Virus record (IMG/VR): IMGVR_UViG_3300029911_000010
Location: 32,001 to 96,000 of that record
DNA from: a virus
Direction: 5' to 3' (one strand)
Length of the DNA stretch: 64,000 nt
Positions 235 through 63,030 of this stretch are shown here, one piece after another. Within the stretch, counting starts at the first letter, position 1. The number at the start of each line of letters is the position of its first letter. The translations under genes were made by a program, and so were the position numbers. The notes under the pieces were generated by a model. That model made no database searches and was not told the origin of the DNA. It worked only from the letters and a program-made list of their open reading frames with translations.

Positions 235-292
235 GAGCCTCCGTGCTCCTGCACTGAGTTATCGAGCAACCGAAGACGATTATCCGTAACCG
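235..292 (-). promoter_or_regulatory. Pair of CsrA-type hairpins in sheath leader
   Basis: GAGC-ACGGAG-GCTC (235-248, over the SD) and CGGTT-ACGGAT-AATCG (277-292). Confidence 0.75.
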
Positions 293-294
293 TC

Positions 295-1029
295 TTACAC
301 CTCATTCGGTCGAATCTGAAAACTGAGGTCTACATGCCGCAATGGCAATGCTTCCGGAATCACTTTCCACGTTTCCTGGTAAGCCCATCCGACCGTGATG
401 GGCACCACGTAGTTCTGCTGCGATTCCTCAACCTCACTAATTGCTCCAACCTCAGTGACTGAAAACTTCACCAGGCTGAGCTTTTCTTTGACCACCGGAG
501 CAAACTGGGTCAATTCCCGTTGCGTCTCGGTTGCCAGGATCTCACAACTCGCACCCGTTCCTTGGATGCAAAACAAGGTGTGACTTCCGACCCAGAGCGT
601 GACGTAGTCAACGTTGCCTTGTTTGTCTGTGCCCGCACAGTCGTCGAGGACAATCCTCAAGTTCTGGTAGGCGTTGCGTTTCAACAAGATTGCCGGACGC
701 TTTTCAACAAGATCGCCAAGCCATCTGTGAACGCTTTCAATGAGTATACCGGACGACGGGGCGTTCTGCCAAATTGCCGCTGCCAGCGCCGGATCTTCGA
801 TAAAGTCGGGATTGGAATAGTGATTGATCAACAGGCGGCGGATGGCACCAGTCAGTCGCAAAGGCCGCCAGCCGGCATGGCAGATGGCCCCGGCCACTTC
901 GTGGGAATCGCCCAGCTGCCGCCTGTCCTGCGTCGGAGCTTCCGGAGGGAGCGGCGGGCACCAGGTCTGCGTGTCATCCAGCAGTTTCTGAAACAGTGTC
1001 TTGTCGAGCCGCAGGGATGGATTGCTCAT
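295..1029 (-). CDS. Putative tail completion/terminator protein
   Basis: ATGA overlap with upstream gene and GGAG RBS; position between neck genes and sheath; size and beta-rich C-terminal half. Confidence 0.5.
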   Translation of the reverse strand: MSNPSLRLDKTLFQKLLDDTQTWCPPLPPEAPTQDRRQLGDSHEVAGAICHAGWRPLRLTGAIRRLLINHYSNPDFIEDPALAAAIWQNAPSSGILIESVHRWLGDLVEKRPAILLKRNAYQNLRIVLDDCAGTDKQGNVDYVTLWVGSHTLFCIQGTGASCEILATETQRELTQFAPVVKEKLSLVKFSVTEVGAISEVEESQQNYVVPITVGWAYQETWKVIPEALPLRHVDLSFQIRPNEV

Positions 1030-1274
1030 TTTTGTTTCTCCACCAGCGATCGACACATTCCGGTCACCTGATCGATGACCATGTCACGTTGAAACAGCTG
1101 GCGGAACACGTCGACTGGAGCTACTTCGTGTTTCTTGATGCTCAACCTGTCGATGAACGGATTTCGTGGCTTGGACGTCGCAGGCCGTGGTGGCGGCGTG
1201 CCCGGCGTGGAGCCGGACAGGCTTAGCGGAGCATAGCGGCCAAACTGTGATTGATCGGGAGGTAGGTAGGGCAC
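1026..1274 (-). CDS. Hypothetical protein (82 aa)
   Basis: AAGGAGG then GTG at 1274; stop overlaps next ATG. Confidence 0.6.
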   Translation of the reverse strand: MPYLPPDQSQFGRYAPLSLSGSTPGTPPPRPATSKPRNPFIDRLSIKKHEVAPVDVFRQLFQRDMVIDQVTGMCRSLVEKQK

Positions 1275-1275
1275 G

Positions 1276-2177: not shown

Positions 2178-3152
2178 TCATACCGAACCGTAGTCCGAGC
2201 CGTAACTGCCGGCACACTCGTGCATGGAAATTTGCAATTTCTTAAGCTGCCTGAACTCATCCCATTGCTGCTTGTGCATCTGGTAGGCCGCCAGGTACTC
2301 ACGCTCCTTGTCCTTGTCGCCGACCAGCTGGCCGCCGCCCTGCAGGTTGGCTTTGTTGCGGCGGTAGTGTGCGGCGGCCATTTGATACAAATATCCAGAC
2401 GCGGCGCTGAGCCATTCCTGTTTCCACGGAAAGTTTCGGCTGTCAAATCGTAGTCTGATTCGCGGCGGCATGTCGTTGAAGTCAGCCAGGGGCTTGGTCA
2501 GGGCGATCGTCAGCTGCTCGTCGGAAAATTCCAGATCGTCCAGCAGATACTGATTCTCAACCGGCGAGGAATCGACGATGCTCATCCGCAACTCGTTGAT
2601 CGTCGGCGGCCCGTCCGTGTGCGTATACCCAGGCGTGTTGAAGCCGAACAAGCTGCGCTCGACGCTTAGCAGCCCGTCGTTGATCAGGACGATGTCGCCC
2701 TCACGCACCAGCGCCCATGACAACCGATAGATGCCACTCTGGCCGTAGATGCTGCTAGGGATTGGCGCTCGAACGACGCCGTTGGTCGCATCGATCACGC
2801 TGCCCTCGGATACCTTGATGTTTTGCGGGCCTTGATTGAAGCCGCTGAACTCAGCAATTCGCAGGATAACTTGAGTGTTCAGGCTGTCGTCGTTGTCGCT
2901 GTCGCTGAAATCGATCGAACCTGATTCGCTGACTTCGGCCGGGGTGAACAGATCCACAGGATTGCCGGTGCGGTCGCGGAAAGTCTGCTCCAGCGTTACG
3001 TTCACGCCTTCCTGGCAGATGAACGCTTTGATGCGAGTGAGAACCGGGCAGCCGTCCATGGCGGGGATGCCCGGCGTGATCACATTCAGATCTGCCGTCA
3101 AAGTAAGCCTCCTTGCTTGACTGAAATTCATTGTAACCGGGACTTGACTCAT
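2178..3152 (-). CDS. Putative head-tail adaptor protein
   Basis: C-terminal helical domain (EFSDEQL..AL...FN..PP); immediately upstream of neck gene; start uncertain. Confidence 0.5.
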   Translation of the reverse strand: MSQVPVTMNFSQARRLTLTADLNVITPGIPAMDGCPVLTRIKAFICQEGVNVTLEQTFRDRTGNPVDLFTPAEVSESGSIDFSDSDNDDSLNTQVILRIAEFSGFNQGPQNIKVSEGSVIDATNGVVRAPIPSSIYGQSGIYRLSWALVREGDIVLINDGLLSVERSLFGFNTPGYTHTDGPPTINELRMSIVDSSPVENQYLLDDLEFSDEQLTIALTKPLADFNDMPPRIRLRFDSRNFPWKQEWLSAASGYLYQMAAAHYRRNKANLQGGGQLVGDKDKEREYLAAYQMHKQQWDEFRQLKKLQISMHECAGSYGSDYGSV

Positions 3153-9773: not shown

Positions 9774-9812
9774 GTCCTCCGTGACAAGTTACAGGCCCGA
9801 TCCTTTCAGGCC
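9774..9812 (-). promoter_or_regulatory. Pair of CsrA-type hairpins
   Basis: GTC-ACGGAG-GAC (9774-9785, over SD); GGCCTGA-AAGGA-TCGGGCC (9794-9812). Confidence 0.7.
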
Positions 9813-11897: not shown

Positions 11898-11931
11898 TCA
11901 TTTCTTTTGACGCATTTCAAGTTGAAATTTA
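11898..11931 (-). promoter_or_regulatory. Repeated intergenic motif, copy 2 (candidate phage-RNAP promoter)
   Basis: Same pattern as 7103-7136; directly upstream of alpha-CTD gene. Confidence 0.5.
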
Positions 11932-12960
11932 CGTCGCAACCGCCTGAGCCGTAACATGCGGGCATTGGCCGTAGATATGCTTGGCTTTGTTACAGTTAGA
12001 ACACAACAGTTGCCAATTGTCCTTCGGAAATCCGGCAGCTTTAAGCCGGCGGTAAAGCCTTAATCCGCCGCTGCCGTGTGCTCGACGATCATCAGCCCCC
12101 TTACCGTCGATGTGATCAATTTCTAGAAACTGCGGCAATGTTTCCGGACAACCAGGACACGAACATTTACTACCGTAGGCTTCGATGATTTCGGCGCGGA
12201 GTCGATCATGCTTGCGATTAGATTTTTTCCGACTCATTATCAAATGCCGCTCACACATTGTCTTGTCTTCGACTGCAAGTTGATCACAGTGCTGGGCAAC
12301 ACAAATCCCTTTGTCTTTCCGATTAGCGTAATCGTTCTTGTCTTCTTCTCGACAGTCGTCGCAATACCTATTGACTCCGTTGGTCGGTTTATCGCATTGC
12401 GTGCATTTGCCAGCCTGCTGTCGCTCCGCTGTTTTCTGCCGCCTTACTTCTCGGCACTGATCACATCGGACAGTCCCCGGTTCAACATAAGCCGGGCAGC
12501 TTTGACACAGACCGGCACGAAGACGAGCGTTGTAACGCGGAATATCTTCGATTCGTTCCAGCTGCAAAGCGTAACAGTACCGACAACGATCCTGCTCGGC
12601 ATCAATGTAAAACGCGCCGCATTCGATGCAAATCCCCTGAGCAAGCCGCTCAGCGGATTCGGTCTCTTTGATCGCTTGAGATTGCACGGCAAGTTCGGCA
12701 GCAGTCATAATCTGCCGGTTTCGTTGCTTTATAAGACACAGATCACAGTAAACTGAATCAACACCGGCCGGTTGTGTACAGCCAGTCGTCACGCATAAAC
12801 CGGTCTGCTTGCGTCGAAGATATTTCTCGTGATCTTTTTGCTTAGCGACATCTGTGTGATACTGACATCTAGCTTTTCCCGGTAAAGCCGGTTGACTGCA
12901 CGAACAACATAAACCCCGTTCACGCCGACTTCGTTGTACATCTGCCGAATGAATCGCCAT
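11929..12960 (-). CDS. HNH endonuclease with multiple Cys-rich (GLCxxC...C..C) repeats
   Basis: C-terminal LEIDHIDGKG...QLLCSNCNKAK; about 6 N-terminal Zn-finger-like repeats; lower GC than neighbours. Confidence 0.85.
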   Translation of the reverse strand: MAIHSADVQRSRRERGLCCSCSQPALPGKARCQYHTDVAKQKDHEKYLRRKQTGLCVTTGCTQPAGVDSVYCDLCLIKQRNRQIMTAAELAVQSQAIKETESAERLAQGICIECGAFYIDAEQDRCRYCYALQLERIEDIPRYNARLRAGLCQSCPAYVEPGTVRCDQCREVRRQKTAERQQAGKCTQCDKPTNGVNRYCDDCREEDKNDYANRKDKGICVAQHCDQLAVEDKTMCERHLIMSRKKSNRKHDRLRAEIIEAYGSKCSCPGCPETLPQFLEIDHIDGKGADDRRAHGSGGLRLYRRLKAAGFPKDNWQLLCSNCNKAKHIYGQCPHVTAQAVAT

Positions 12961-13984: not shown

Positions 13985-14026
13985 GATCCTCCGTGATCAG
14001 TTAAAAGTCACCGCCATCCTTGGCGG
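13985..14026 (-). promoter_or_regulatory. Pair of CsrA-type hairpins in MCP leader
   Basis: GATC-ACGGAG-GATC (13985-13998, over SD); CCGCC-AAGGAT-GGCGG (14011-14026). Confidence 0.8.
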
Positions 14027-14048
14027 CATGAAACACTCTGCCATCAGC

Positions 14049-14596: not shown

Positions 14597-14638
14597 GATC
14601 CTCCGTGATCAGTTGGAAACGAGCCATCCATCCTTGGA
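14597..14638 (-). promoter_or_regulatory. Pair of CsrA-type hairpins
   Basis: GATC-ACGGAG-GATC (14597-14610); TCC-AAGGAT-GGA (14627-14638). Confidence 0.8.
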
Positions 14639-15126: not shown

Positions 15127-15162
15127 TGTGACAGCCTCCATGCTGCTTGTTGGGTTGATTTC

Positions 15163-16491
15163 TTACCGGACAGCCGCTGCAGCGGCTTGCTTTTGACGGC
15201 TGCGGCCGATCACCTCAACGAGATAAGCTCGGGCCGCCTGCTTAACTTGTTCGCTGACACCGGCGTCAGCGGCTGCCACCTGCATGCCTGGAGGCGGGCC
15301 ACCGGCTCCCGGAGGAGGGCCACCCATGCCTGGAGGCGGGCCACCGGCTCCCGGAGGAGGGCCACCCATGCCCGGAGGGCCGCCAGCGCCTGGAGGCGGG
15401 CCACCGGCCCCCGGAGGGCCACCGGCACCACCGCCGCCGGCCTGTTCTTCCTGGTAGGCCTGCATGAACTGCTCGGGCGTGATGCCCATCTGTTGCAGCA
15501 TGGCCATGATTTGTTGAATATCGCCGCCACCGCCGCCAGAAGGGTCATCGCCGCCGGAGGGATCGCCGCCCGGAGGCGGGCCACCAGCGCCAGGGGGAGG
15601 GCCGCCCATGCCGGGAGGGGGAGCGCCGCCGCCTGCGGGATCTTCGTCACCGCCGGGAGGAGGAGCGCCGCCGCCGTCTTCGCCCTTGCCGTCGCCGCCG
15701 GCCTTCACCCGCTGCTGCACACGCTGCTGGCAGTAGTTAATGACGCGATCGGCATCGGATTCGGCTTCCTTGATGATTTCCACCAGGGTGTCCTGCACCA
15801 TGCGGTCGGCGGCAGCCTTGTCCATCGTGCCGTCGATCAAGCCGGCCAGTTCCCAGCCTGCCTGGCGGCTGAGTTGAGGATTGACCGGTTGAGCCACCTG
15901 CTGGGCAGTCTGCTGGGGCTGGGCAGCTGCGCCTTCCTTGGTGACGTTGGTCTGCACTTCATTGGCGATCTGGGCACAGAGAAGCTCACCCAACGAAGAG
16001 ATCTCGCCGGCCAGCTTCTGCAGCGGGTCATTGGCCAGATCGGTGGCGTACTTGCCGCCATTGAGTTCGCTGTTGTCGGTGCGGGCCGGATGGGTGGTGG
16101 GCTTCTTGTAGCCCTTGTCTTCCTTGGTGGTCTTGGTCTTGGGCACGTCCTCCCCGGTCGGCGTGGCTCGAAGCCCAATGTTGTACTGGTCGGCCTCGGC
16201 AGTCCCCGGCTCACCTACGCCACCGGACTTGGCAGTGCCGGCTTCGGGTGTGGAGTCGACCGAGGGCTTGCCCTGGTCGGCCTTGACGTCCTTGGTGTTC
16301 TCGGCCGAGCGGAAGCCTTCTTTGGCTTTCTCGGTCCGGTCGTCGACCTTTTTCACGGGGTGAGTGGTTTCGCCGCCGATGCTTCCGGGTTCAGTGTGAG
16401 CCTCGGCAGTCTTGGCAATCGTTGAAGCGGCGCTGGATTCCACGCGAGCAAGATACGCTTCGATCGTGGAAAGCTGGTGTTGAGCAGACAT
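15163..16491 (-). CDS. Probable scaffolding/core protein with Gly-Pro repeats
   Basis: Between protease and capsid genes; disordered, many K-x-A motifs, (GGPPPGA/M)n; AGAC-AAGGAT-GTCT hairpin over start codon (16486-16499). Confidence 0.6.
   Translation of the reverse strand: MSAQHQLSTIEAYLARVESSAASTIAKTAEAHTEPGSIGGETTHPVKKVDDRTEKAKEGFRSAENTKDVKADQGKPSVDSTPEAGTAKSGGVGEPGTAEADQYNIGLRATPTGEDVPKTKTTKEDKGYKKPTTHPARTDNSELNGGKYATDLANDPLQKLAGEISSLGELLCAQIANEVQTNVTKEGAAAQPQQTAQQVAQPVNPQLSRQAGWELAGLIDGTMDKAAADRMVQDTLVEIIKEAESDADRVINYCQQRVQQRVKAGGDGKGEDGGGAPPPGGDEDPAGGGAPPPGMGGPPPGAGGPPPGGDPSGGDDPSGGGGGDIQQIMAMLQQMGITPEQFMQAYQEEQAGGGGAGGPPGAGGPPPGAGGPPGMGGPPPGAGGPPPGMGGPPPGAGGPPPGMQVAAADAGVSEQVKQAARAYLVEVIGRSRQKQAAAAAVR
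15283..15430. repeat. Coding tandem repeats (21/42-nt units) encoding GGPPPG[AM]
   Basis: catgcctggaggcgggccaccggctcccggaggagggccacc repeated. Confidence 0.85.
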
Positions 16492-16537
16492 CCTTGTCTC
16501 CTAAAATTGCATCCTGCTGATCGGCCGAGGCTCGGCC

Positions 16538-42156: not shown

Positions 42157-43326
42157 CTATCCAAACAACCTGGGTAGAACGGCTTTTACGATACCGAGGT
42201 AAACCCCGGTTTGCTTCAAGACATCCTGTGCGGACTCGGGCATGCCGGTCAACAACCCAAGCGTATTGCCGACCAGTGCGCCAGAAACGTATCCAGCGCC
42301 CATGTGCGCAGCTAAATTCGCCATCTGTACTGGAGTAACCCAGCTTGATCCTTCTTCTCCGCTTCTGCCGCCAGGCATCTGCCGAGCCGCCATCAAAGCC
42401 CCCATCGTCGCCCCGGCCAGCTGTGGGCTGGCCCCGATATCCCACAAAGTCTGCCCCAGTGAGTTGATGTTCACGTCCATGGGCGTCGGTCCCGGACGCG
42501 TGGCTGCTTCCCAGGGCATTGTCAGCGTGTCAAACGCCTCCTTGATGTGCTGCGTCGGCCAGGTAGCCTGCAGGTACGCCGCCACTGCCTGCTTATGCCA
42601 TTGTCCGGGCTCAGGCAAAAGATCAATGTCGGATGCTGCTTTCCAGTTAATGTCAGGCGGGCCGCCTGGTGGAGCATACAACAGCGAATTGTCGTTTAGA
42701 GGCTTGCCGGCCGCATGGTTGGCTGCCATCCAGGCACCACCGGGAACGGCTCCGGCCAGCCCGCCGACTGCCGCCAGCGTATTTTTCAAACGTCCGCGAC
42801 GCCAACTGTCAGGCAGGCGGGATTCAATCAGCGAGCCGGCACCGTAGCCCAGGCCAGCGCCGACCAGGCCGCTGGTGAGCATTGCCCGCACCGGGCTGGG
42901 GTTCATGCCGGTGAACTGCATCTTATCGGCATCGAAATGCGGGAAGAATCCCGCCCATTCGCCAGCAGTGCGCAGCGCCGGGCTGTAAGCAATCTTGACC
43001 CAGCCTTCATCTTCGAGCACCAGTCCGCTTTTCATCGTCGGCGACCAGACAAATCCCTCATCCGGCACGTCAGCTACGTCGGCCATGGCGGATTTGAGCA
43101 ATGCAACGTCACGCGCCGGTGATTCATCCGGCACATAGAAAGCCACCTTGTGTGTGTCCGGATGCAGGTAGATGCCGATCGGCATGGAAGTATAAACGCC
43201 GGAAATGGCACCGCGAATGCCGTCAGCTTCCGCCGCCAGCTTCTCAGCCGTCGCAATCGCGTCACGGCCGACGCGATACCACGCTGTCATTTGTTCCACG
43301 GTGAGAAGAGGTTGTTCGACCTCCAT
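42157..43326 (-). CDS. Putative internal/ejected virion protein with glycine zippers
   Basis: EKLAA, VKIAY, WKAAS, IKEAF; GLVGAGLGYGAG. Confidence 0.65.
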   Translation of the reverse strand: MEVEQPLLTVEQMTAWYRVGRDAIATAEKLAAEADGIRGAISGVYTSMPIGIYLHPDTHKVAFYVPDESPARDVALLKSAMADVADVPDEGFVWSPTMKSGLVLEDEGWVKIAYSPALRTAGEWAGFFPHFDADKMQFTGMNPSPVRAMLTSGLVGAGLGYGAGSLIESRLPDSWRRGRLKNTLAAVGGLAGAVPGGAWMAANHAAGKPLNDNSLLYAPPGGPPDINWKAASDIDLLPEPGQWHKQAVAAYLQATWPTQHIKEAFDTLTMPWEAATRPGPTPMDVNINSLGQTLWDIGASPQLAGATMGALMAARQMPGGRSGEEGSSWVTPVQMANLAAHMGAGYVSGALVGNTLGLLTGMPESAQDVLKQTGVYLGIVKAVLPRLFG

Positions 43327-43410
43327 GTCGTCTCCAGCTGTTCAGTTACGTGAATTTTAGCTCATAATGCACTCTGATTACAAATAGACATGAAATACAC
43401 ACCCTTAGCG

Positions 43411-43478: not shown

Positions 43479-46400
43479 TCACATGATACAGGAATCGCCG
43501 CTGCAAGCCAGCTCCTTGCGGACATTGGTGTGGTCGATGCCGTGCTCGTATCGCGGAAGCTTCTCCCACTCAATCTTGGGGAAGTTCGCGGTGAAGTCGG
43601 CAAACTGCTCAGGTGTCAACGGCGTGAAGGGAGCCTGGGGGTAAACGCCGCCATCAAGCGGCAGGAAAGCCAGGCCACCAACATCTTCCCAGTGAGCGTA
43701 TACCCATCCGGCCACCTGCGGCCATTCGTCATCGCCGACGTAAATGGTCACGGACGGATTGTGCTCGGTGTAATGCTTCTTGAACGCCAGCCAGTCTTCC
43801 AGCTGACACATGGCGCTGCGGCGGCTCTTGGTCGCTACCACCTTGCCGCTGACATCAGTCACCAGATCGCTGACCACCATCGAGCCCTCGGGGGCTTTAA
43901 GCGGAAAGCTGAAAATAGTCGTGCCCGGATCACGGTAGCAGACTTCGTGCGGCACGCCCTGATCCTTAAGGAAGCGGCACATGGGGTTGATGTTGCCTAC
44001 TTCGACGTTGCGGATCATGTGCTGAGCCAGCCAGCCGCCCATGCTCTGACCGACGCCGTAGCGGGCACCGGAGTTGCCACCAGGCTTGATGCAGGTGACA
44101 GCGTTGGACGGGTTGATGCCCAACCGCTTGGCCCACACACGGTTCTCCGACAGCGCTGTCTGCTTGAGGTGTTCCAACAGACGATGACGATCGGGATTGG
44201 AATCACGCAGCAGAGGAGAATCCAAAGCGCCCAGCAAGTCGACACCCAGCAGTCGCTCGGCTTCGCAGTTTTCCTTCCAGCGAGGCCGCAGATAACTGAA
44301 ATCAGTCATGGTCGACTGAATGGTGCCGAAGATGGCAGCCAGCCGCACCTTGCGTTCCAGGATTACTCCGGTGTCCGTAGGCCGCACGATGGGAATCGAC
44401 AGGTTACAGAACTGCCCATCGGGATGCAGGATGACTTCACCGCAATTCGACACCAGCATTCCGCCAGTCCAATAGGTGTGCTCGTCGGCGGCGACTGTGA
44501 TGTCCCACACCGGCTGCGAACCCTCATCCGAGATACTGATAATTTCGAAGCTGTGTTTTCTGGTCGGCTGCTCGGTAAGCGCAGCTTGATTCGCCTTTTC
44601 CTGTTTGTAGCCCTGCACGAACCCGATCATCGTGGCGAACCTGCCCTTGCCCGTCGTGATGTTCAGATCGTAGCTCTCGCGGCATTCGTAAGTGCCGTTG
44701 TCAAAACGAACCGCTTTGGCAGCTTTGGGCGTGTAGTACGACGGGATGCCAAGACCAGACAGCATCTCCTGTACATCAGAGATTATCTTAAAAGACGTCG
44801 CCTTGAGTATGACTCGTCCCCCACACACCGATCCATTGGCCGAATACAAGCCACGGAGAAATCCACGGATCTTTAATTCGTCGCCGTGTTTGAATCGGGC
44901 CGGTACAGATCGCAGGTAGGTATAGGGCAGCTCGGCGGCCGTTACCGTCGCATCTTCTCCGATCGCGTAAGCGTGACTGCGAATACCCGGACGGTGCGAG
45001 AGGTGACTCGGAAAGCGGTCAAGTACGTCGCCATCATTTTCCCCGACGCAGAGATAAATGAGGTTGTCAGAAGCGGCGTGGACCGAGCCGTCGCCAATCA
45101 GTAGACCATCCAGCACGTCGCGGTCGCACGGCAGGGATTGCAATCCTAAGTAGCTGGCATCGTCCCGAGTGATGGGACCGACGCAGCGGTCGATCGTCTC
45201 AGCATCCTGTGCCTCGATCTTTTCACCGTGGCTGACAACGCGGTGGTTTTCAGTCCCGAGGAAGAATCCGGCCGTGGTCTGGTAGCGGAATACCGGCTTG
45301 ACCCCGGTGTAGACCTTACGAGTCACTTCTGACCAGTGTTTACCTGTCCAGATCACGTCTCCTGTTTTCAGCTCGCCCATCGTGCGAATGCCGTCACGAG
45401 TCAATACCGTTGCATTGGCAGGCTGACAGGGATTGGTGCCCCAGAGAACGTCAAAGAATGAATCCCCGTACTGGTCGATACGTCGCTGGGGCATCTGCCG
45501 AGCCAACCCGCCTCGGTTAAAGATCCCACGTTCGCCGCTCTTGGATATCACCAGCGACAACCATTCAGCCAGAAAGACGTGAGCCTCGGGCTTCTCGTCG
45601 TACACCGCCGAGTTGTTGGACATGGCCCGTTGAACGTACAGCGGGTTCTCCCAGTATTTGCCGAACTTGGCTTCCCGCATCAACTGGCTTTTGAGATTGG
45701 ACAGGCTGATCAGCGCTGCCCGCCGCACCCCGCCTAGCTGCCCCACCTGGCCGATGTAGCACATCGAATCATGCACGTCGATGTCACGCAGACGTTTGCC
45801 CTCGCGAGCCCGGAAGAGACGGCGGATGGCCGTATGCAAATCCGACAGCGGCTTGGGTCCGCTGGCCCGCCCGCCCTTGGTCATCAGCCGAGAACCCTCG
45901 GGGCGAATCTCGTGATACTTGATGTCCAGATCGTAGCCCTCGTAAAGCCGGTACATCAGATGCTTAACGCTGTCACACCAACCCTCAGTAGCGTCGGGCA
46001 CCACGAACACGTCGGGTACGCTGTTACGACGCCGGCGCTGAATACGCGGTAGCTGCTCGACGAATTCACTCTCACACGAGAAACCGCAGCCGGCCCCGGC
46101 CATGGAGATGTACAGGTTCTCGGCGAAGTAGTCGACATCCCTGATACCGGAGTAGCTGCAGTTGTAGATGCCGACGTTGCAGCGGGTCGCCGCCGGCCCG
46201 GCCATCTGCATCAACCGCATGCTGGGGGTGGCTTCCTCGTTGATGATGGAATCCCGCAGCATCTGATAGTCCCCCGCTTCCAATGTGGGCATGCCGTGCT
46301 TGCGCAGGTGATACTGGATGAAACCCATCACGCGGTCGGTAGATTCGGGATAAGTCTCACGCCGCTTGAAGTCGTCGTTGAAGCGAGCGTACTTGTCGTA

Positions 46401-46832
46401 GTGCTGGAATCGCTGCAGATCGGTGGTGCCCCTGGTTTCGCACAGCCGGGTTTCCTCGCGGATCGCCTCGACCGCCTCGTCGGTGACGCCGGCCAGCGCC
46501 GACGCCTCGCGGATCTTACGCCGCTCATCACGGAAGAGAACGTACTTGCGTCCCGCGTCGGCTTCGCCAACGGCAAACAACGCCTCTTCCACGAAATTCT
46601 GAATTGCCTCGACAGCAATAGTTCCTCCGATAGATGCGATCAACCGTTCGACACGATCGGTTACCTTCGCGGCCAGCGCCCTCGTGTCGTCATCGAGCGC
46701 TCGACCACAATCGTTGACCAGACAAAGCATGACCACCTGGGTGATCTTACTGCGTTGGTATGTGACCAAATTGCCGGAACGTTTGCGTACCTGTAAAGCT
46801 GCAGGCACAACAGTAGAAATGCCAGTCGACAT
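43479..46832 (-). CDS. nrdJ: Class II (B12-dependent) ribonucleotide reductase with ATP cone and intein
   Basis: VRKRSG ATP cone, PSMR, YNC, GGRASGP, GGVRRAA, GTNP/CGE, CNL, TCIKPGG, EHNPSVT, C-terminal CSGDSC. Confidence 0.92.
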   Translation of the reverse strand: MSTGISTVVPAALQVRKRSGNLVTYQRSKITQVVMLCLVNDCGRALDDDTRALAAKVTDRVERLIASIGGTIAVEAIQNFVEEALFAVGEADAGRKYVLFRDERRKIREASALAGVTDEAVEAIREETRLCETRGTTDLQRFQHYDKYARFNDDFKRRETYPESTDRVMGFIQYHLRKHGMPTLEAGDYQMLRDSIINEEATPSMRLMQMAGPAATRCNVGIYNCSYSGIRDVDYFAENLYISMAGAGCGFSCESEFVEQLPRIQRRRRNSVPDVFVVPDATEGWCDSVKHLMYRLYEGYDLDIKYHEIRPEGSRLMTKGGRASGPKPLSDLHTAIRRLFRAREGKRLRDIDVHDSMCYIGQVGQLGGVRRAALISLSNLKSQLMREAKFGKYWENPLYVQRAMSNNSAVYDEKPEAHVFLAEWLSLVISKSGERGIFNRGGLARQMPQRRIDQYGDSFFDVLWGTNPCQPANATVLTRDGIRTMGELKTGDVIWTGKHWSEVTRKVYTGVKPVFRYQTTAGFFLGTENHRVVSHGEKIEAQDAETIDRCVGPITRDDASYLGLQSLPCDRDVLDGLLIGDGSVHAASDNLIYLCVGENDGDVLDRFPSHLSHRPGIRSHAYAIGEDATVTAAELPYTYLRSVPARFKHGDELKIRGFLRGLYSANGSVCGGRVILKATSFKIISDVQEMLSGLGIPSYYTPKAAKAVRFDNGTYECRESYDLNITTGKGRFATMIGFVQGYKQEKANQAALTEQPTRKHSFEIISISDEGSQPVWDITVAADEHTYWTGGMLVSNCGEVILHPDGQFCNLSIPIVRPTDTGVILERKVRLAAIFGTIQSTMTDFSYLRPRWKENCEAERLLGVDLLGALDSPLLRDSNPDRHRLLEHLKQTALSENRVWAKRLGINPSNAVTCIKPGGNSGARYGVGQSMGGWLAQHMIRNVEVGNINPMCRFLKDQGVPHEVCYRDPGTTIFSFPLKAPEGSMVVSDLVTDVSGKVVATKSRRSAMCQLEDWLAFKKHYTEHNPSVTIYVGDDEWPQVAGWVYAHWEDVGGLAFLPLDGGVYPQAPFTPLTPEQFADFTANFPKIEWEKLPRYEHGIDHTNVRKELACSGDSCIM
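44445..45428 (-). mobile_element. Intein with LAGLIDADG endonuclease (328 aa) at RNR NP/CGE active site
   Basis: CQPANATVLT...GLLIGDG...GLYSANG...VWDITV...VSN/C. Confidence 0.9.
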
Positions 46833-47328: not shown

Positions 47329-49959
47329 TTAGATGTCCTCGTGGCGAGCTAAAAAAGAGGGGGCACGCAACGCCCCGCTGGCTAGTTGTTCCTGGGCACG
47401 AACGCGGGCGACACGGCCAATCCAGTCATCTGGATTAGCTGCCATGTCAGCCAGAGTCGCGTCGTCAAAGCCAGTGCCGACCTTGCCGACCGGTTCACCA
47501 CCAGGCTGCAAGCTGTACTGAAATCCGCCGACCGTGCTGGCCCGCCGGCCTTCGCCAGGGAAAAAACTGTGAATGTGAACATCGTGGTCCTCGGTCAGCT
47601 TGCTCTTCATCGGCTTGCCGTGCGTCGGATGGATCACCACACCTTCACGGGTCAGGGGATTCTTGCCACCGGCGATGTCCTGCCACATCTGCATCGCCTT
47701 GCCCGGCTCAGCCTCCTGGCTCAGGTGGAATCGCCCCGGAGCTGCTGCTTCAAGAAGCGGCAGAATCTCGCCCAGCATAGCACGACGCTCAGCGTAAGAC
47801 GTTTGATCAAAGTCAACCGGATGCTTCCCGACTTGCTGGACGTCAAAGAGGGCGTTTCGCAGTTGTATTTTCCGATCTCTTTGCTGGGCAATGGCATTCG
47901 CGGGAGTGGCATTGAGGATGCCACCGAGTTCGGACGGGTGTATGGCTGTTTGCACAGTGTCGGATAGTAATGGGTCTCCCGGATTATCTGCCCCAGCTTC
48001 TCCGCCACCGGGCTTGTCGCCTTGTCTAACGCCGTAAAGTTCACCCCTGAGGACTGATCCAACCAGATTCGGCGGGGTTTGTATTGCTGGTCTGCCATGA
48101 AAGAACCTCTCCGTGTGTAAAATGGGCCGGCCTGTCTGCTTGCTCTGTCGGTAACTGGTCAGCTCCACGCCATCCTTGAGCAACTTGATCAAACTAGAAG
48201 CCCCGTCAATCTTAGCCTGCACGCTGGCAGCCGGATCTAACTTGGACAACGTCTGCTCGATCTGGTCGGCGGGGATCTTGGTGTAGTGAATCTTCTGATA
48301 CGGCAGTGACTGCGACGGCGTGGTGTTGATCATCAGCCAATCACGGTCACGCTGGCCGTGCCACTTGGTCAGCATGAAGCGCTCGGGGTGCTTCTTGTCC
48401 ATCCGCGTGAAGTGAATCTCACCGGGGGACACCTTGGTCAACATGATCTGGCCGCTGTCGTGTTTCTTAACAGAGCCGCCGCCGTAGCGCCCCAGGGGAA
48501 TGTCGCCCTCGAAGTCCTTGTAGCCGTAGCGATGCACGGGCTGCTGCACCGCCAGGATGCGCTGGCCCGGCTCTGGAAGCTCATTGCGGGTCGCCCACGA
48601 GTACAAGCCGGTATCCGGGGTGCCGAAGCGAAAGTCGTAATGCGGGCCAGCCTTCTGCGCCAGGTGATGCTGGATAACCAAGTCGTGGTTCTGACCCGGC
48701 TGCAAGGCGTCCCAGTCGCCAAAGTTCTGCCGGCTGGGCAGGCCGGGAGCGGCGTCGGCTTTCTTCTCGTGCTTTTCTTCGTCGTCCGGCTCGTCTTCCT
48801 CCAGCTTGACGTCAGCCTCACGTCGCATGATATCCGGCACGGGCGTCTTGGCCGGTACGTAGGGCTTGAATCCCAGCGACGTGTAGAACGCTGCTAACTC
48901 TGACGTGCCCAGCGCCTTGTCTTTGTACGGGCCGACGTGCAGCTCCAGCGGCTTGTGGCCGTAGGCGTCCAGAACGTGTTCCATCAGCTTGCGAGCCAGT
49001 CCCTTTTCACGATGACGCGGCGAAACGTACAAACCCCTGATCCATCCGGCGTCGTGGCCGGGGACGTCCATTACAGCGACACCGCCGATCTCCCGTCCGT
49101 TGCGGGTGATGTCAAACCGGTGCTCGGGTCCGTGCTGAGCGAAGTTGTCCCGGTAGTCTCCGAAGCGATATTCTTCCGCAAAAGTTGATTTGCTTTTGTC
49201 AGCAGCCACTTTCTGGTTTCCGGCGTCGGCGAAATCTTCAAGGTCGAAAAGATCTGATCCGCCATCGGTTCCAGCTGGTCCACACTGCCTGCCATATCCG
49301 CTATCACCTGAGGGATGTACATCTGCAGCCTTCTTCCTGTATTTGGCGAACATGCCGTCTTCGATTTCACGCGTCGTGTCGGCGTGCTCCAGCCACCATT
49401 TGAACTGCGGCATCGTCAGTGAGTAGATCGAACCCAGCCCCTTCCAGCCGTCCTCGTAGTTCTCCAAGTACAACCGGCGGGCCTGGTCCTCGTTGATAGC
49501 GCCGAAGATAACCTTGTGCTCGTCGAAGTCTTTGGTGCCGGGGTCAACCTGGTTGACGACGAACACCAGCTCGCAATGCGGGTGCTGATCGCCGATGAAC
49601 ACGTCGACATGATCCTTGTCCCGCCCCTCAGTGCCCAGGATGTAGCCATAGTGGCTTTTCATCTCCTGAGACCATTCCTTGCCGTCTCGGCTCTTGCCGC
49701 TGCGGGTGGAGCCCTTGGGATTTTCAATGGAGATGGTCAGCCCGTGAATGTTGAGCTTGCCCTTGGCGTAGTTGCCCGCCTCACGCTGAGCTTCGGTAGG
49801 CTCGGTGTCAGTCTTGGCAGCGGCCCGGTCGATGCGATCCAGGTAATCCGCCAGCTCGCGATTGGCGTGCTGGGCCTGGTCCACCGTGGTATCGGGCACA
49901 ACCGTTACGCGAATAATACGATGTGAAACGCTCAGAATGCTGGTCGGCGAATCTTCCAT
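47329..49959 (-). CDS. Polyvalent protein: InPase-like + GNAT + LigD phosphoesterase + ATP-dependent DNA ligase
   Basis: AGNYAKG..IENPKG..HYGYI..DHVDVF..DEHKV; LYVSPRHREKGLARKLM..FYTSLGF; IQHH..HYDFR..SWA..FEGDIP; KIDG, GELY, FDV, EGVVI, VGTGF. Confidence 0.88.
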   Translation of the reverse strand: MEDSPTSILSVSHRIIRVTVVPDTTVDQAQHANRELADYLDRIDRAAAKTDTEPTEAQREAGNYAKGKLNIHGLTISIENPKGSTRSGKSRDGKEWSQEMKSHYGYILGTEGRDKDHVDVFIGDQHPHCELVFVVNQVDPGTKDFDEHKVIFGAINEDQARRLYLENYEDGWKGLGSIYSLTMPQFKWWLEHADTTREIEDGMFAKYRKKAADVHPSGDSGYGRQCGPAGTDGGSDLFDLEDFADAGNQKVAADKSKSTFAEEYRFGDYRDNFAQHGPEHRFDITRNGREIGGVAVMDVPGHDAGWIRGLYVSPRHREKGLARKLMEHVLDAYGHKPLELHVGPYKDKALGTSELAAFYTSLGFKPYVPAKTPVPDIMRREADVKLEEDEPDDEEKHEKKADAAPGLPSRQNFGDWDALQPGQNHDLVIQHHLAQKAGPHYDFRFGTPDTGLYSWATRNELPEPGQRILAVQQPVHRYGYKDFEGDIPLGRYGGGSVKKHDSGQIMLTKVSPGEIHFTRMDKKHPERFMLTKWHGQRDRDWLMINTTPSQSLPYQKIHYTKIPADQIEQTLSKLDPAASVQAKIDGASSLIKLLKDGVELTSYRQSKQTGRPILHTERFFHGRPAIQTPPNLVGSVLRGELYGVRQGDKPGGGEAGADNPGDPLLSDTVQTAIHPSELGGILNATPANAIAQQRDRKIQLRNALFDVQQVGKHPVDFDQTSYAERRAMLGEILPLLEAAAPGRFHLSQEAEPGKAMQMWQDIAGGKNPLTREGVVIHPTHGKPMKSKLTEDHDVHIHSFFPGEGRRASTVGGFQYSLQPGGEPVGKVGTGFDDATLADMAANPDDWIGRVARVRAQEQLASGALRAPSFLARHEDI

Positions 49960-49980
49960 GACTAAATCATCCAGCTCACC

Positions 49981-50052
49981 TTGACTTCACCTGTTCGGGT
50001 GATATCATACTGACCGTTCATCGAAGTCAAACCTCTATCGAAAGGAGTCGAT
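49981..50052 (+). promoter_or_regulatory. sigma70-like promoter and CsrA-type hairpin of csrA
   Basis: TTGACT-16-TATCAT (49981-50008); ATCGA-AAGGAG-TCGAT over SD (50037-50052). Confidence 0.7.
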
Positions 50053-50053: not shown

Positions 50054-50482
50054 ATGCTAGTTCTCAGTCGCAAGCGTGACCAGGCCGTCCGAATCGGAAA
50101 AGACATTCGCGTCATGGTCACCGACATTCGCGGTGACAAAGTTCGTATCGGTACGAACGCTCCACCGTGCTACAGAGTGTACCGCAAAGAGATCTACGAT
50201 GGAATCCTCAGGGAAATCGCAGCCGGCGGCAGCCCTCCGGAAGAGCGGATCAAGTCCGGCGCTGGCCAATTGGTGCTAAGCCGCCAGCGTGACGAAAAGC
50301 TGTACGTCATCGATCCGGCCGACTGGAATAAGCCCCTGGTCAGCATCACGGTAGTGGATATTCGCGGCGATAAGATACGTCTCGGCTTTGAGGCAGACAG
50401 ATCGCTTGACGTGGACCGCGAGGAGGTCTATAAGTTGAAATCAGCCGGAGCCGATGCGAAAGCAGGCCAAACGGCGGTCTGA
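50054..50482 (+). CDS. csrA: Tandem two-domain CsrA/RsmA translational regulator
   Basis: MLVLSRK...IRGDKVRIG..AP...VYRKEI and LVLSRQ...IRGDKIRLGFEA...VDREEV. Confidence 0.92.
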   Translation: MLVLSRKRDQAVRIGKDIRVMVTDIRGDKVRIGTNAPPCYRVYRKEIYDGILREIAAGGSPPEERIKSGAGQLVLSRQRDEKLYVIDPADWNKPLVSITVVDIRGDKIRLGFEADRSLDVDREEVYKLKSAGADAKAGQTAV

Positions 50483-50501
50483 GTCATTTGTACTACTCCA
50501 A

Positions 50502-50543
50502 GCAGATCACCCTGGCGCTTACAACGCCAGGGTGGTTTGTTTA
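50502..50543 (+). terminator. Intrinsic terminator after csrA
   Basis: CACCCTGGCG/CGCCAGGGTG stem followed by GTTTGTTTA. Confidence 0.8.
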
Positions 50544-50632
50544 TGTAGACAGCTGCACAACCGTAAAGCCTCTGTCAATCCATTCTCCTTCGAGTCTTTC
50601 AAGGGGCTGAAATGGTGAAAAATCCCCGCCGG

Positions 50633-51184
50633 TCATGCAGCCGTCGTATCCTTGGCTGTATCCGTACGCCCCAGCACGCCCCTCTTCCTTATCGCAACTG
50701 TCACATGAAAATCGTATTTCCCCTCGTTAGGCAAACTGCTTAAGCCGTAGCTGCGCCGCAACTCCTGCAACTCCGGTGAATGCACCCGCAGTATCCAGCA
50801 CTTAGCCACATCAGGCCAGCCAGCCGGCTCCAGCTCCATTAGACGGCCGATGGTGTAGGTGAACGTCTTGCCGCGATCGTTGAGCAGCTTGTCAGTCCCG
50901 CCGATGATGGAGATATCCTCGGGGCGGAACACAGTGATGTGGGCGTCCAGCTTGCCTTCGTGCAGCGGCAGCTCGATGCCGGTTTCGTCCATGGCATCAA
51001 AGATGCCGCGAACCATGGCATTGGGCACCGACAGCAGGCCGTAGGGCTTATCGCGGTGCTGGGCGACGTACAACCGGCCTGACAGGTTGTAGGCCGGCAC
51101 CTGGTCATTGGCAATCTTCTCGCCCAGGCGGTACGCCTGGTTGTGCCAGTAACTGAAATTGTCGATGGGGCTCAGAACGCTCAT
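50633..51184 (-). CDS. 2H phosphoesterase
   Basis: Two HxT motifs (AHITV, FHVTV); N-terminal EKIA motif. Confidence 0.8.
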   Translation of the reverse strand: MSVLSPIDNFSYWHNQAYRLGEKIANDQVPAYNLSGRLYVAQHRDKPYGLLSVPNAMVRGIFDAMDETGIELPLHEGKLDAHITVFRPEDISIIGGTDKLLNDRGKTFTYTIGRLMELEPAGWPDVAKCWILRVHSPELQELRRSYGLSSLPNEGKYDFHVTVAIRKRGVLGRTDTAKDTTAA

Positions 51185-51778: not shown

Positions 51779-51842
51779 GGTCACTCCTTTGACCCAACCT
51801 CAGTTTGTACCCTGTCTTAGATTGCATAATACTCGACGATAG

Positions 51843-59907: not shown

Positions 59908-62900
59908 TTAACTCTTAGGAGCTGGGGTTGGACCCCACGGATTGCCTCCATGCCAGATGTCCCACTGTTTGCCACCGTACTCCGGTGCCAGCGCTGCGCT
60001 CAAGCCCAAGGCTCCAGCGCCGCCCAGTGCTCCGCCGATGCCCGGCGCTCCGCCGGCACCGAACGCCAGTCCGGCTAATGACATGATCAAACCTAACACT
60101 GCGGTGATCTTTTGTGCCGGCTCCCAACTGTTATTCTTATTGAAGCCAAGTTGCTTTAACATCGGGTCCAGAAAACTCATCAATCCGACAATAGCTGTCG
60201 CCCCGCCTGCACCGCCGGTCATTGCCTTCGCCATCAACTGCGTCATTTTCGGATCACTCTTGATGATGTTGGTAATTCGCTCTCCGGCTGCATCATCTCC
60301 ACCACGATAAGCTGCAAGCTCTTTGCCTAAACTGGCGACAACCGGATCACTGCCTCCGGCAGATGCCATAATCTGAGGAGCTAGTTGTTTGACTAGCGAA
60401 CTATTGGCGAGCCGTTTAATAGCTTCGGGGTCATTCTGTTGAGCTGCTGAAATATCGCTGGCCATCTGTCGTTTGGCTGGATCGGTGGCTAACGACCAGA
60501 TATTCTTTACTCCGCTCATAAAATCACCAGCAGTCGGCTTGACCTTATCGAACGCATCGAACGCCGGACCGCCTGCCGCCTCTGTCATCCGAATCGGACC
60601 GTACGCCTGGTTGCGCACCGCCGTGGCAGCAGCATTGGGGTCTTCGCCGGGCAACGGCTTACCTTGCAAGGCGGTCTGCTGATCCTGTGCGTTTCGCCGT
60701 GCTGCCTCTAGCAGCTTGTTCGGATCGCCGTTGGCTTGCTGAATATCACCTGGCGTAAGCATGCCGCTGCTCATCGCCACTTGCGTCTTCATCTCGGGAT
60801 TGACGCCAGGCCCGGAAGCGTTCTGAATATTTCCCAGCTGCTGAGTTACACTGTCGTTCCACTGTGCCGCTGACATGCCGTGCTGCTTGGCTACCTCGAC
60901 AGCTCGTGCTGCTCGCTGATGCAAATCGTAAGCGCTGCCGACGCCAGTGGCCGTTAATGCAGCCAGGTTGGTGCCACGACCGAGGTTTCTCATCAAGCTG
61001 GTAGGCGTGCCTGCTTCCATTCCGCCAGTGCCAGCCCGAACCCAGTCCAATGTCTTAGCGACCGGACCTTCCGCCCCGATCGCCTTAGTGAAACCACTGT
61101 TTGGAGCAACTGCCTTACTGATCTGACCTAGTCCTCCTCGCAAACGGTTGGCGGAGCCGGCCAGTGTGGATGCAACTTCGGCCGGGTTGGTGTAGCCGAG
61201 CGTAGACCCCATCGCAAAGTCGTGTGTGGCCTGATTAAAACTCTGCAGCGCCTTATTTTCCGGCGCAAGCGCCCGCAGACCACTGGTGCCGGCACCGACC
61301 GCCAATCCGCCCAGCGTCATCGCCTTTTGTGCATTGCCGCCGGTCTGGTTGGGAAACAGCTTGTCCAGACTGCTGCCGGTAAAATTGCTGAGCATGGCTG
61401 TGTTGGCCGTGCGCAAATAAGGATTGGTCAGCATGCGACGTAATCCGCTCGCACCAGCTGCACCTTCCATCTGCCGGCCCACCGCCGGATTGAAAGCCGC
61501 CGCACCAGTCAAACCGCCCAGCCCTCGCCACATCAATTCGTGCTGCAGCTGTCCGGTGTTGGGATCGACGTCGCCGAAGTCCTTGCCCAGCTCAGCGCCA
61601 GTGCTCTGTCCGGCGTAACCGCCAAACAGCGTCTGGGCTGCAGACATGCCGACGTTGCCGACCTGCTTGGCCCGCTGCATTGCAGTCATTGGCGGCTTGA
61701 CTGGCGTGCCGGGAGCGGGAGCCGGCGTTTCGCCGGCCGGCGTCGCTGCTGCCGCTGTTTCGCCGGCAGGAGCTGGAGCTGGAGCAGGAGCTGGAGCAGG
61801 CGGTGAACCCGGACTCGGTGGCAACTCTGCTTCACCAGGCATGCCCAGCCGGCCCGTGGAAGGCGCTGAGGGCCTGGATGGAGCAGGCATGACAGACTCA
61901 GCAACCGGTCGCGGCTGAGGCGAAGGTTGAGGCCGCATTCGCGGAGGCGTATACAATCCTCTGGAAGGTGCGACCGGTGGCTCAAGATTCATCTTGGGCA
62001 GCGGGTTGGCCCCGTATAACATTGAAGCCGGCGGCCGCGTTTTCAGCGCCTCCTGCATCCCGCTCGCCATACCCTTGCCGGCTTCGCCCATGCCGCCCAA
62101 GCCCTTGGTTTCCTCACCAGCGCCGAACAAGCCCTTGGCGCCTTCGACCAGCGCAGGGCCTTCCTTGGCAATTGCGCCGAACTCGCTGGCTGCCTTCTCC
62201 AGCTGCTCCAAGCCGTCAAGCAGCTCGTCGATGGCCGAGGGCTCCATCACGGCAGCCAGCTTGACGATCGTGTCGGCAGTCTGGTGCAGGCTCATGCCCC
62301 GCTCAAAACAGCCGTGCAGGAAGCCGGCGGCAAACGGGGACAGCGCAAAAGCTGATTTGCGATGCTCGGGCCACGGCTTGCCGCAGCGGTTGCAATTTCC
62401 GTCGTCGCCCCGTTCCATTGATGCCCCGCAATGCGGGCAATTCTCCCCCTCATGGCCGCCTGTCTTGAATCGGCTGGTCATCGCCGTGTCGAGCATCCGC
62501 TCATTGTCCAGATCACGCTTGGTCGATCCCGGTGGCATACGACGCATAACCTCAGTCAAATCGTCGTTCTTGTGGTGTTGGTCGAGATATCCTGTGCCCA
62601 GGCCGTACAAGCCGCCCAGGCCGCCGCCAATGGCAGCGCCAGCCCCGGTATGCCCGCCAGCGATGTTTCCGCCCAGGGCTCCCACGCCAGCGCCCAGGCC
62701 GCCCATCAGCAAAGCTTTGAGCAACCCCTGCTTGCCCGGACTGGCCATCATATTGGGAATGGGAGTGGCGTCGTCCTGGATGATATCCGGCATCCAGTTG
62801 CTCTGCCCCTGCTCAACGCGGGCCTTCTCCCACGGCTCCAGATCCTCGCGGCGGTCGCCAATGGGCACAAACGACCGCAGCAGGCGTCCGGGAATGCCGG

Positions 62901-63000
62901 GGCTTGCGCCGGCGGCGGCCTTGGCCAGGGTGTCGTATGACTTCTTGTACTGATGGCGTGGCAGCCGTGCAATGCGGACAGCCTGGCTGGTCTCGGGCAT
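59908..63000 (-). CDS. Large putative ejected virion protein (Gly zippers, Zn ribbon, Pro-rich linker, K-x-A)
   Basis: CPHC..CNRC, RKSAF, VKLAA, EKAAS; hydrophobic Gly-rich segments; start MPETS after AAGGAG. Confidence 0.65.
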   Translation of the reverse strand: MPETSQAVRIARLPRHQYKKSYDTLAKAAAGASPGIPGRLLRSFVPIGDRREDLEPWEKARVEQGQSNWMPDIIQDDATPIPNMMASPGKQGLLKALLMGGLGAGVGALGGNIAGGHTGAGAAIGGGLGGLYGLGTGYLDQHHKNDDLTEVMRRMPPGSTKRDLDNERMLDTAMTSRFKTGGHEGENCPHCGASMERGDDGNCNRCGKPWPEHRKSAFALSPFAAGFLHGCFERGMSLHQTADTIVKLAAVMEPSAIDELLDGLEQLEKAASEFGAIAKEGPALVEGAKGLFGAGEETKGLGGMGEAGKGMASGMQEALKTRPPASMLYGANPLPKMNLEPPVAPSRGLYTPPRMRPQPSPQPRPVAESVMPAPSRPSAPSTGRLGMPGEAELPPSPGSPPAPAPAPAPAPAGETAAAATPAGETPAPAPGTPVKPPMTAMQRAKQVGNVGMSAAQTLFGGYAGQSTGAELGKDFGDVDPNTGQLQHELMWRGLGGLTGAAAFNPAVGRQMEGAAGASGLRRMLTNPYLRTANTAMLSNFTGSSLDKLFPNQTGGNAQKAMTLGGLAVGAGTSGLRALAPENKALQSFNQATHDFAMGSTLGYTNPAEVASTLAGSANRLRGGLGQISKAVAPNSGFTKAIGAEGPVAKTLDWVRAGTGGMEAGTPTSLMRNLGRGTNLAALTATGVGSAYDLHQRAARAVEVAKQHGMSAAQWNDSVTQQLGNIQNASGPGVNPEMKTQVAMSSGMLTPGDIQQANGDPNKLLEAARRNAQDQQTALQGKPLPGEDPNAAATAVRNQAYGPIRMTEAAGGPAFDAFDKVKPTAGDFMSGVKNIWSLATDPAKRQMASDISAAQQNDPEAIKRLANSSLVKQLAPQIMASAGGSDPVVASLGKELAAYRGGDDAAGERITNIIKSDPKMTQLMAKAMTGGAGGATAIVGLMSFLDPMLKQLGFNKNNSWEPAQKITAVLGLIMSLAGLAFGAGGAPGIGGALGGAGALGLSAALAPEYGGKQWDIWHGGNPWGPTPAPKS

Positions 63001-63030
63001 CCTTGCTCCTTTGCCGCCCATCCATGAGCG
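62997..63030 (-). promoter_or_regulatory. Three GGA motifs/CsrA-type sites in leader
   Basis: CGCTC-ATGGAT-GGGCG (63015-63030), AAAGGA SD, GC-AAGGAT-GC over start codon. Confidence 0.65.

Follow-up and report, generated by a model that had tools for sequence, protein, structure and literature searches.

CsrA is among the best-understood bacterial translational regulators. Proteins of phages are also known to act at ribosome-binding sites: the coat proteins of MS2, Qbeta and PP7, on the replicase hairpin, and RegA of T4 bind a hairpin at the Shine-Dalgarno (SD) sequence or start codon and set timing or dosage, and the T4 endoribonuclease RegB cuts GGAG within the SD of early phage mRNAs, with no hairpin needed. 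In the CsrA-flagellin-FliW partner switch of B. subtilis and Campylobacter, CsrA gates an abundant self-assembling protein via two leader sites, one of which lies on the SD (PMC6529632, PMC4894983). Genes for CsrA are found in about 1.2% of phage genomes (PMC7366521) and in 81 records of the phage collection searched here; in JC1, a Bcep22-like phage, csrA lies between the portal and capsid genes, and its product may be in the virion (PMC9144972). Our literature search found no report of cis operators on a phage's own structural genes for a phage or plasmid CsrA, and no description of a natural tandem CsrA. Here we analysed a 64,000-nucleotide stretch of viral DNA (hereafter the window), bases 32001-96000 of the 104,427-bp IMG/VR contig IMGVR_UViG_3300029911_000010 (CheckV completeness 47%). 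The phage encodes a CsrA with two tandem domains, and about two dozen of its genes, including those for the capsid, sheath, baseplate and CsrA itself, carry short hairpins with GGA in the loop at their starts.

A first-pass annotation, made from the sequence alone, had placed such hairpins at or beside the SD or start of 12 genes, and all 12 gene starts carry them. Over the whole 104-kb contig, the sense strand has 30 hairpins with an A-N-GGA-N hexaloop and a stem of at least 4 bp and the antisense strand has 2, whereas 60 dinucleotide shuffles gave 5.0 ± 2.2. Hairpins with an AGGA tetraloop were also in excess (12 versus 4.1 ± 1.9 in shuffles), and loops defined without the leading A showed no enrichment on the contig. 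The motif CA.GGAGG occurs in 17 copies on the sense strand and in none on the antisense strand. The closing pair is mostly C-G, with A-T or T-A at a minority of sites, and the first loop base is A, giving CA-N-GGA-N-G, which we take to be a high-affinity CsrA/RsmE site on the basis of the RsmE-hcnA structure and CsrA SELEX (systematic evolution of ligands by exponential enrichment) work. The hairpins match the CsrA/RsmE operator consensus, (A/U)CANGGANG(U/A), with the GGA in the loop of a short stem.

In an SD-matched control, every A.GGA. core near a start codon was kept and the 3' flanks were swapped among sites, so that the position-specific composition was preserved. Stems of at least 4 bp were found at 15 sites versus 0.99 ± 0.97 expected, the highest count among 2000 swaps being 6, and the swap control performed without gene calls gave z = 10 for this phage, confirming the earlier claim that SD content alone is insufficient to explain the hairpins. 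In total, the contig contains at least 21 start-site hairpins, a set that extends beyond the one first annotated.

The position of the hairpins relative to the start codon falls into several classes (coordinates are those of the window; the hairpins lie on the minus strand, which holds almost all genes, unless the plus strand is named). Most copies lie 3-10 nucleotides (nt) before the start codon, where GGAG(G) is the SD. In a second class, the hairpin covers the ATG itself, as in GGC-A[AC]GGAT-GCC or AGAC-AAGGAT-GTCT, and a distinct SD lies immediately upstream, so that the looped GGA cannot be the SD. In further cases, a copy precedes the SD copy by 23-56 nt or lies 10-25 nt into the coding sequence. 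The upstream copies at 273-296, 9794-9812 and 14010-14027, which had been described as non-SD, are indeed not SD sequences, since they are located 23-56 nt 5' of the SD copy. Paired sites are frequent in this phage: a partner GGA hairpin lies 23-56 nt away at 8 of the 21 start-site hairpins (0.84 ± 0.89 expected), a spacing within the range for bridging by a CsrA dimer. Most of the claimed hairpins are present in the minimum-energy fold predicted with ViennaRNA.

The stems vary yet stay paired around the same loop, a feature seen first in this contig alone and now extended to its relatives. In the relatives' capsid leaders, the loop is constant as ACGGAG, ATGGAG or AAGGAG, and the stems include GATC/GATC, GGAAC/GTTCC, GCAC/GTGC, TTTC/GAAA, AAAC/GTTT and GGAC/GTCC. 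The covariation score of the capsid leader, calculated from 55 distinct sequences, was 0.417 versus 0.149 ± 0.024, and none of 500 shuffles scored as high; changes on both sides of the stem were counted in 54 cells versus 21.7 expected, with all slid controls lower. Of the 55 leaders, 47 close the loop with a C-G pair, and 48 of 54 have A as the first loop base. Orthologues of the sheath, 603-aa and 180-aa genes likewise keep a hairpin at the gene start, although its stem differs: the sheath orthologues in the relatives G023 and G020 retain the SD hairpin on other stems, and those of the 180-aa gene have the stems TTGTC/GACAA, AAGAC/GTCTT and AAATC/GATTT. Genes that are hairpin-free here are mostly hairpin-free in other family members. 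The covarying arms and the constant loop fit a folded strand, not a site in duplex DNA.

As the first-pass annotation had supposed, the phage encodes a CsrA of its own. The lone plus-strand gene at 50054-50482 encodes a 142-aa protein that PF02599 matches twice (residues 1-51 and about 73-127; whole-protein E 3e-32, 110.8 bits versus a 27-bit cutoff). CsrA and RsmE chains in the PDB match the protein with E values of 1e-8 to 1e-10, the best match being the FliW-bound CsrA of Geobacillus (PDB 5dmb). Domain 1 (MLVLSRK...RVYRKEIY) and domain 2 (LVLSRQ...DVDREEVY) both contain the beta-1 LVLSR and the equivalents of R44 and E46. From mutagenesis in E. coli, we take L2, L4 and R6 in beta-1 and V42, R44, E46 and I47 in beta-5 to be the critical RNA-contact positions; R6, R44, E46, R122 and E124 of the phage protein are invariant across 28 tandem metagenomic homologues. 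An AlphaFold2 single-chain model (pLDDT 90.9, pTM 0.81) has five strands and a helix in each half, and single PDB CsrA subunits superpose on only one half of it with TM-scores of 0.71-0.80 by target length, whereas Foldseek with the tandem model returned no match at E ≤ 0.001. Judging from this model, the tandem CsrA most likely forms a single-chain pseudo-dimer that presents two composite faces for RNA binding. Another tandem CsrA, of 192 aa (P0007), is on record from an 854-kb contig, and the tandem form may therefore occur in cellular genomes or megaphages as well.

The csrA gene itself has a hairpin on its SD (ATCGA-AAGGAG-TCGAT, 50037-50052, plus strand), 1 nt before the ATG, and the tandem csrA of the relative G001 carries the identical hairpin. 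By its resemblance to CsrA autoregulation, we regard it as a candidate autoregulatory site. Upstream of csrA, a sigma-70-like promoter, TTGACT-16-(TG)TATCAT (49981-50008, plus strand), has 10 of 12 consensus matches, with a chance expectation of 0.7 in the region, and is a lead only. In G000, G001 and G005, csrA is flanked by the genes for the 2H phosphoesterase and InPase.

Two other elements were noted next to csrA. A stem-loop, CCCTGGCG/CGCCAGGG, at 50500-50530, in the gap where csrA and the 2H gene converge, resembles a bidirectional terminator serving both genes. A CyVA-1 RNA (Rfam RF02965; 47 bits versus a gathering score of 41.4 bits) at 50558-50635 on the minus strand begins at the 2H phosphoesterase stop codon and runs towards csrA from the opposite strand. 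The CyVA-1 consensus has a conserved GAAGGAGA loop, and the RNA could be another CsrA ligand, as a candidate. It scores above the cutoff in one other relative only (G030), where it does not adjoin csrA, and the paper that described CyVA-1 assigns the RNA no function (PMC5737381).

We then compared the occurrence of csrA and the hairpins across the family. Of 41 long relatives, 32 have csrA, as do 24 of the 27 relatives with a completeness of at least 90%. Co-occurrence was evaluated in 13 family genomes, namely this contig and 12 relatives assembled from pieces. All 10 csrA-positive genomes showed an excess of start-site hairpins (z 4.2-16.2), and the genomes with a tandem CsrA, this phage and G001, were the densest, with 14-16 sites per 100 kb versus 4-9 in the others. 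Hairpin enrichment thus followed csrA, with one exception among the three csrA-minus genomes, which was enriched too (see below). In the other two, both complete, hairpins were either absent (G041, z -1.5) or at background level (G013, which is without a Pfam-level csrA; z 1.4). G013 has an open reading frame of about 130 aa (G013:C1:171067-171463, plus strand) with CsrA-like ends, KLSITRRV ... IRLRFTATQSVAIDRKEV, and a long insertion, which from its sequence may be a degenerate or rearranged CsrA. An unrelated csrA-positive Vibrio phage, whose host has CsrA, showed no hairpin excess, indicating that the hairpins are not general to phages or to csrA carriers.

We consider it on the whole probable that the hairpins are CsrA-type operators in the phage mRNAs and that the protein predicted to bind them is the phage's own CsrA. 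The basis of this reading is what was observed: the sites, their excess over controls, the covariation, a CsrA with intact binding residues, and the co-occurrence in the family. By analogy with known CsrA systems, the phage protein would be the ligand and the effect would be repression, not activation. The phage CsrA would bind GGA loops of 4-6 nt on the SD or start codon of the phage mRNAs and block ribosome entry, as at the well-studied SD-overlapping CsrA sites. If csrA is expressed early, the protein would hold back translation of the high-copy virion proteins and of csrA itself, and release would follow once the late mRNAs outnumber the CsrA pool, so that titration would act as a timer or as stoichiometry control. 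A wider picture, which we hold somewhat more tentatively, is that of a self-contained viral regulon: jumbo phages of about 200 kb from peat, soil and freshwater would carry their own CsrA and would have evolved operators for it at two dozen genes of the phage, the pseudo-dimer into which CsrA is fused in this lineage would be unable to mix with host CsrA, and virion synthesis would be timed or dosed by titration, independently of the host.

Several observations weigh against binding by the phage CsrA. The third csrA-minus genome, G039, is complete and has no csrA even by a family-specific hidden Markov model, yet it is enriched (z 4.2), an outcome that the first-pass annotation had named as one that would speak against its own reading, and its capsid gene keeps the hairpin GCAC-ACGGAG-GTGC; the flanks of csrA in G015 gave no informative match in G039. 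The association between csrA and the hairpins was about p = 0.04 by hand count, and is weak because the csrA-minus genomes are few (3) and the genomes are phylogenetically related. Repression of the most-needed late proteins would require a release mechanism. No GGA-hairpin cluster resembling a sponge RNA was found in the non-coding DNA of 8 genomes, this contig representing about 47% of its genome, and scans of motif density and hairpin clusters returned only coding-region peaks and known leaders. Rfam, on the same roughly 47% of the genome, detected no Csr/Rsm small RNA and only CyVA-1, and FliW (PF02623) is absent from 28 family genomes but was detected in control genomes. The pairing of sites that is frequent in this phage has an equivalent in the capsid leader of only 5 of 61 relatives. 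The SD hairpins are short. Since the leaders are no more stable than shuffles in ViennaRNA (z -0.3 to -2.1), the signal does not lie in stability itself; the csrA hairpin at 50037-50052 is absent from the minimum-energy fold of its leader. Finally, the nearest cellular CsrA sequences come from metagenome-assembled genomes (MAGs) of Planctomycetota, so the host may have a CsrA of its own.

This last point, together with G039, bears on the alternative that we rank next, although we think it unlikely: the hairpins are CsrA sites whose ligand is the host CsrA, and the phage CsrA acts on host mRNAs or competes with, replaces or buffers the host protein. G039 retains the enrichment, including the capsid hairpin, without a csrA gene, and plasmid and phage CsrA homologues have been discussed as manipulators of host regulation (PMC9928087, PMC7366521). 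In addition to the closest cellular homologues, 2 of the 10 MAG bins with related capsid genes belong to Planctomycetota, so that the host may encode CsrA; these bins span eight unrelated taxa and give only a weak hint of the host. A host ligand does not readily account for the enrichment in 10 of 10 csrA-positive genomes when the signal has disappeared at the same orthologues in G041 and G013, nor for the site density being highest with the tandem CsrA and the leader of csrA having a site. The csrA-positive Vibrio phage in a CsrA-bearing host likewise speaks against it.

The hairpins might also act without any protein, holding the SD in an open loop or shielding mRNA ends and thereby tuning the translation or stability of highly expressed genes. 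Their location on abundant structural genes, the short, weak stems and the persistence of the hairpins in G039 without csrA are compatible with this proposal, which we nevertheless judge improbable: display of the SD leaves the conserved loop A and the C-G closing pair unexplained, as it does the non-SD GGA loops upstream, over the ATG and inside coding sequences, and the hairpins were lost in G041 and G013 at orthologues that still use strong SDs.

Four RNA libraries yielded contigs with fragments of the capsid, 180-aa and 442-aa genes; DNA carry-over is possible there, and the uncovered parts are uninformative. Two of the contigs, from two peat metatranscriptome runs, both end between AC and GGAG (13992 and 14604, minus strand), inside the identical SD hairpins of the capsid and 180-aa genes; at a depth of 2-4x they cannot define RNA ends, and the shared ends could reflect a cleavage site, fragmentation bias or chance. 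They are a weak hint of a 5' end there and would suit a reading in which something other than CsrA acts on the loops, for instance a RegB-like endoribonuclease cutting at the SD or a different phage RNA-binding protein. We consider this very improbable in view of the low depth of these contigs; in addition, no RegB-like nuclease gene was identified, and the co-occurrence with csrA would be left unexplained. The least likely alternative, to which we give hardly any weight, is a DNA-level promoter or initiator at which the phage multisubunit RNA polymerase (RNAP) starts in the loop: the same two contig ends and the phage-encoded beta and beta' subunits suit it, but covarying arms with a constant loop denote a folded strand and led us to reject a DNA palindrome or promoter as the main explanation, some copies cover start codons or fall within coding sequences, and a start in the loop would drop the 5' arm and make the covariation pointless.

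The individual sites illustrate the classes described above. The 946-aa sheath-like gene has the SD hairpin GAGC-ACGGAG-GCTC (235-248) and, upstream in its leader, a hairpin (273-296) whose stem of 9 bp encloses an ACGGAT loop and which is present in both the minimum-energy and centroid folds. The SD hairpin AAGC-AAGGAG-GCTT (3105-3118) precedes the TTG start, at 3101, of a 307-aa gene. For a 148-aa gene, the SD hairpin GTC-ACGGAG-GAC (9774-9785) is weak, with 3 bp and -0.6 kcal/mol, and the upstream hairpin GGCCTGA-AAGGA-TCGGGCC (9794-9812) has -10.5 kcal/mol. The major capsid gene has GATC-ACGGAG-GATC on its SD (13985-13998), the stem that covaries in the 55 distinct relatives, and GCCGCC-AAGGAT-GGCGGT upstream in the leader (14010-14027). 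The 180-aa gene upstream of the capsid gene has the same GATC-ACGGAG-GATC on its SD (14597-14610), and its upstream hairpin TCC-AAGGAT-GGA (14627-14638) is weak, with -2.0 kcal/mol when drawn as 4 bp and an AGGA loop. The SD of a 154-aa gene lies in GCAGC-ATGGAG-GCTGT (15131-15146), and the start codon of a 442-aa gene in AGAC-AAGGAT-GTCT (16486-16499), with a separate AGGAG SD just upstream.

Further along, a 468-aa gene combines the SD hairpin TGGTC-AGGAG-GACCA (20857-20871) with a second one, TCAGC-AAGGAA-GCTGA (20829-20844), 10-25 nt inside the coding sequence, and G001 has both the same SD hairpin and the same second sequence. SD hairpins are also found at a 202-aa gene (CTGGC-ACGGAG-GCCAG, 22897-22912), at a 237-aa gene between the RNAP subunit genes (TTCGC-AAGGAA-GCGAA, 33031-33046) and at a 129-aa gene (GGTCA-AAGGAG-TGACC, 51779-51794). 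Before a 908-aa gene lies CTTTTC-ACGGAC-GGAAAG (25881-25898), with a weak second copy, TGC-ACGGAA-GCA (25853-25864). The hairpin CGCTC-ATGGAT-GGGCG (63015-63030) is an upstream copy, 19 nt before the SD of a 1030-aa gene. In CGAC-ATGGAG-GTCG (43317-43330), the ATG of a 389-aa gene is in the loop, as is that of an 876-aa gene in AGTC-ATGGAA-GATT (49950-49963). Four of the sites first listed are present as sequences but weak as hairpins: 9774-9785, 14627-14638, 25882-25897, which as first drawn has only -0.3 kcal/mol although a 6-bp CTTTTC/GGAAAG stem is present, and 33052-33061, which has 2 bp and is without a predicted fold.

The proposed restriction to virion genes stands as a trend only: the structural block has hairpins at 17 of 63 genes versus 6 of 52 elsewhere (Fisher p = 0.06, with crude gene calls). 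Besides the capsid, sheath-like and baseplate-J genes and their neighbours, the carriers include csrA, the gene for the 876-aa InPase/GNAT enzyme and the 237-aa gene that separates the RNAP subunit genes. The starts of the RNAP, ribonucleotide reductase (RNR) and glycosyltransferase genes are free of such hairpins, in agreement with the first reading. Only the labels of the capsid, baseplate-J and sheath proteins could be verified, the last on a weak match, whereas the earlier names 'decoration', 'scaffold' and 'holin-like' have no family match. The major capsid protein gene was assigned by phrog_2522 in PHROGs, the label of the baseplate-J protein gene was verified, and the sheath domain PF04984 in the 946-aa gene has E 1.9e-4, below the Pfam cutoff. 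Most of the hairpin-bearing genes remained without a name in PHROGs and Pfam, and the ESM Atlas gave no usable match for the 468-aa and 908-aa proteins; most of the earlier labels are uncheckable because the profile libraries do not know the lineage.

Profile searches also recognised genes for a class II RNR, an InPase-GNAT-LigD_N fusion and a 2H phosphoesterase. The fusion (47329-49959, minus strand) is an 876-aa protein that joins InPase, a GNAT acetyltransferase and a LigD 3'-phosphoesterase, and its ATG lies within an A-T-GGA-A hairpin loop. The phage encodes both the beta and beta' subunits of a multisubunit RNAP, with LAGLIDADG insertions in these genes. Insertions of LAGLIDADG type (PF14528) lie at 25948-30864, 33106-36120 and 43479-46832 on the minus strand, in pieces of RNAP beta' and in the class II RNR; these suggest that essential genes here contain inteins or homing-endonuclease insertions. 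Immediately downstream of the capsid gene is a 343-aa gene (11929-12960, minus strand) whose product has an HNH endonuclease domain.

As for the lineage, blastn in distant mode with the head module found no cultured relative in the phage collection. At least 80 capsid relatives, with 61-87% identity, lie on viral contigs of about 150-235 kb, indicating a large uncultured jumbo-phage family, and many peat metagenomes contain the same DNA.

If the phage CsrA does act on these hairpins, this would be, within the literature searched, the first known virus that uses CsrA on its own structural genes, and a gene that is nearly core in a large uncultured family of jumbo phages would gain a function. 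This reading would also provide a model for the timing of late-gene translation in phages that bring their own RNAP. A natural single-chain tandem CsrA would help in studying the cooperation between two RNA-binding faces and might also serve in engineering as an orthogonal regulator. Since the operator set is clear, conserved and covarying, the circuit is directly testable.

Compared with the known systems, the csrA genes of other mobile elements (Bcep22-like, Pseudomonas and Vibrio phages, and RsmQ of plasmids) are alike in that the element carries a CsrA homologue, but those proteins are single-domain and have been treated as morons or host manipulators without an assigned function. T4 RegB likewise targets the GGAG of SDs in phage mRNAs, whereas the context here is a hairpin and no RegB-like gene was identified. 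The MS2, Qbeta and PP7 coat proteins and T4 RegA share with this phage the small hairpin containing the SD or start codon of phage genes; their folds are unrelated, and they control early or replication genes, whereas mostly late structural genes are marked here. The CsrA-FliW switch resembles the arrangement proposed here in placing an abundant self-assembling structural protein under leader sites, one of them on the SD, but here many genes would be targeted instead of one, and FliW was not found in the 28 family genomes. Translational repression by CsrA, RsmA and RsmE (E. coli glgC and P. fluorescens hcnA; PDB 2jpp) shares the PF02599 protein family, the short GGA-loop hairpin, the CA-N-GGA-N-G core, the overlap with the SD and, within this phage, the frequent pairing of sites. 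It differs in that here no sponge RNA was found on the roughly 47% contig, the protein is one two-domain chain instead of a homodimer, and the regulator and its predicted targets, virion genes among them, lie together on the genome of a virus.

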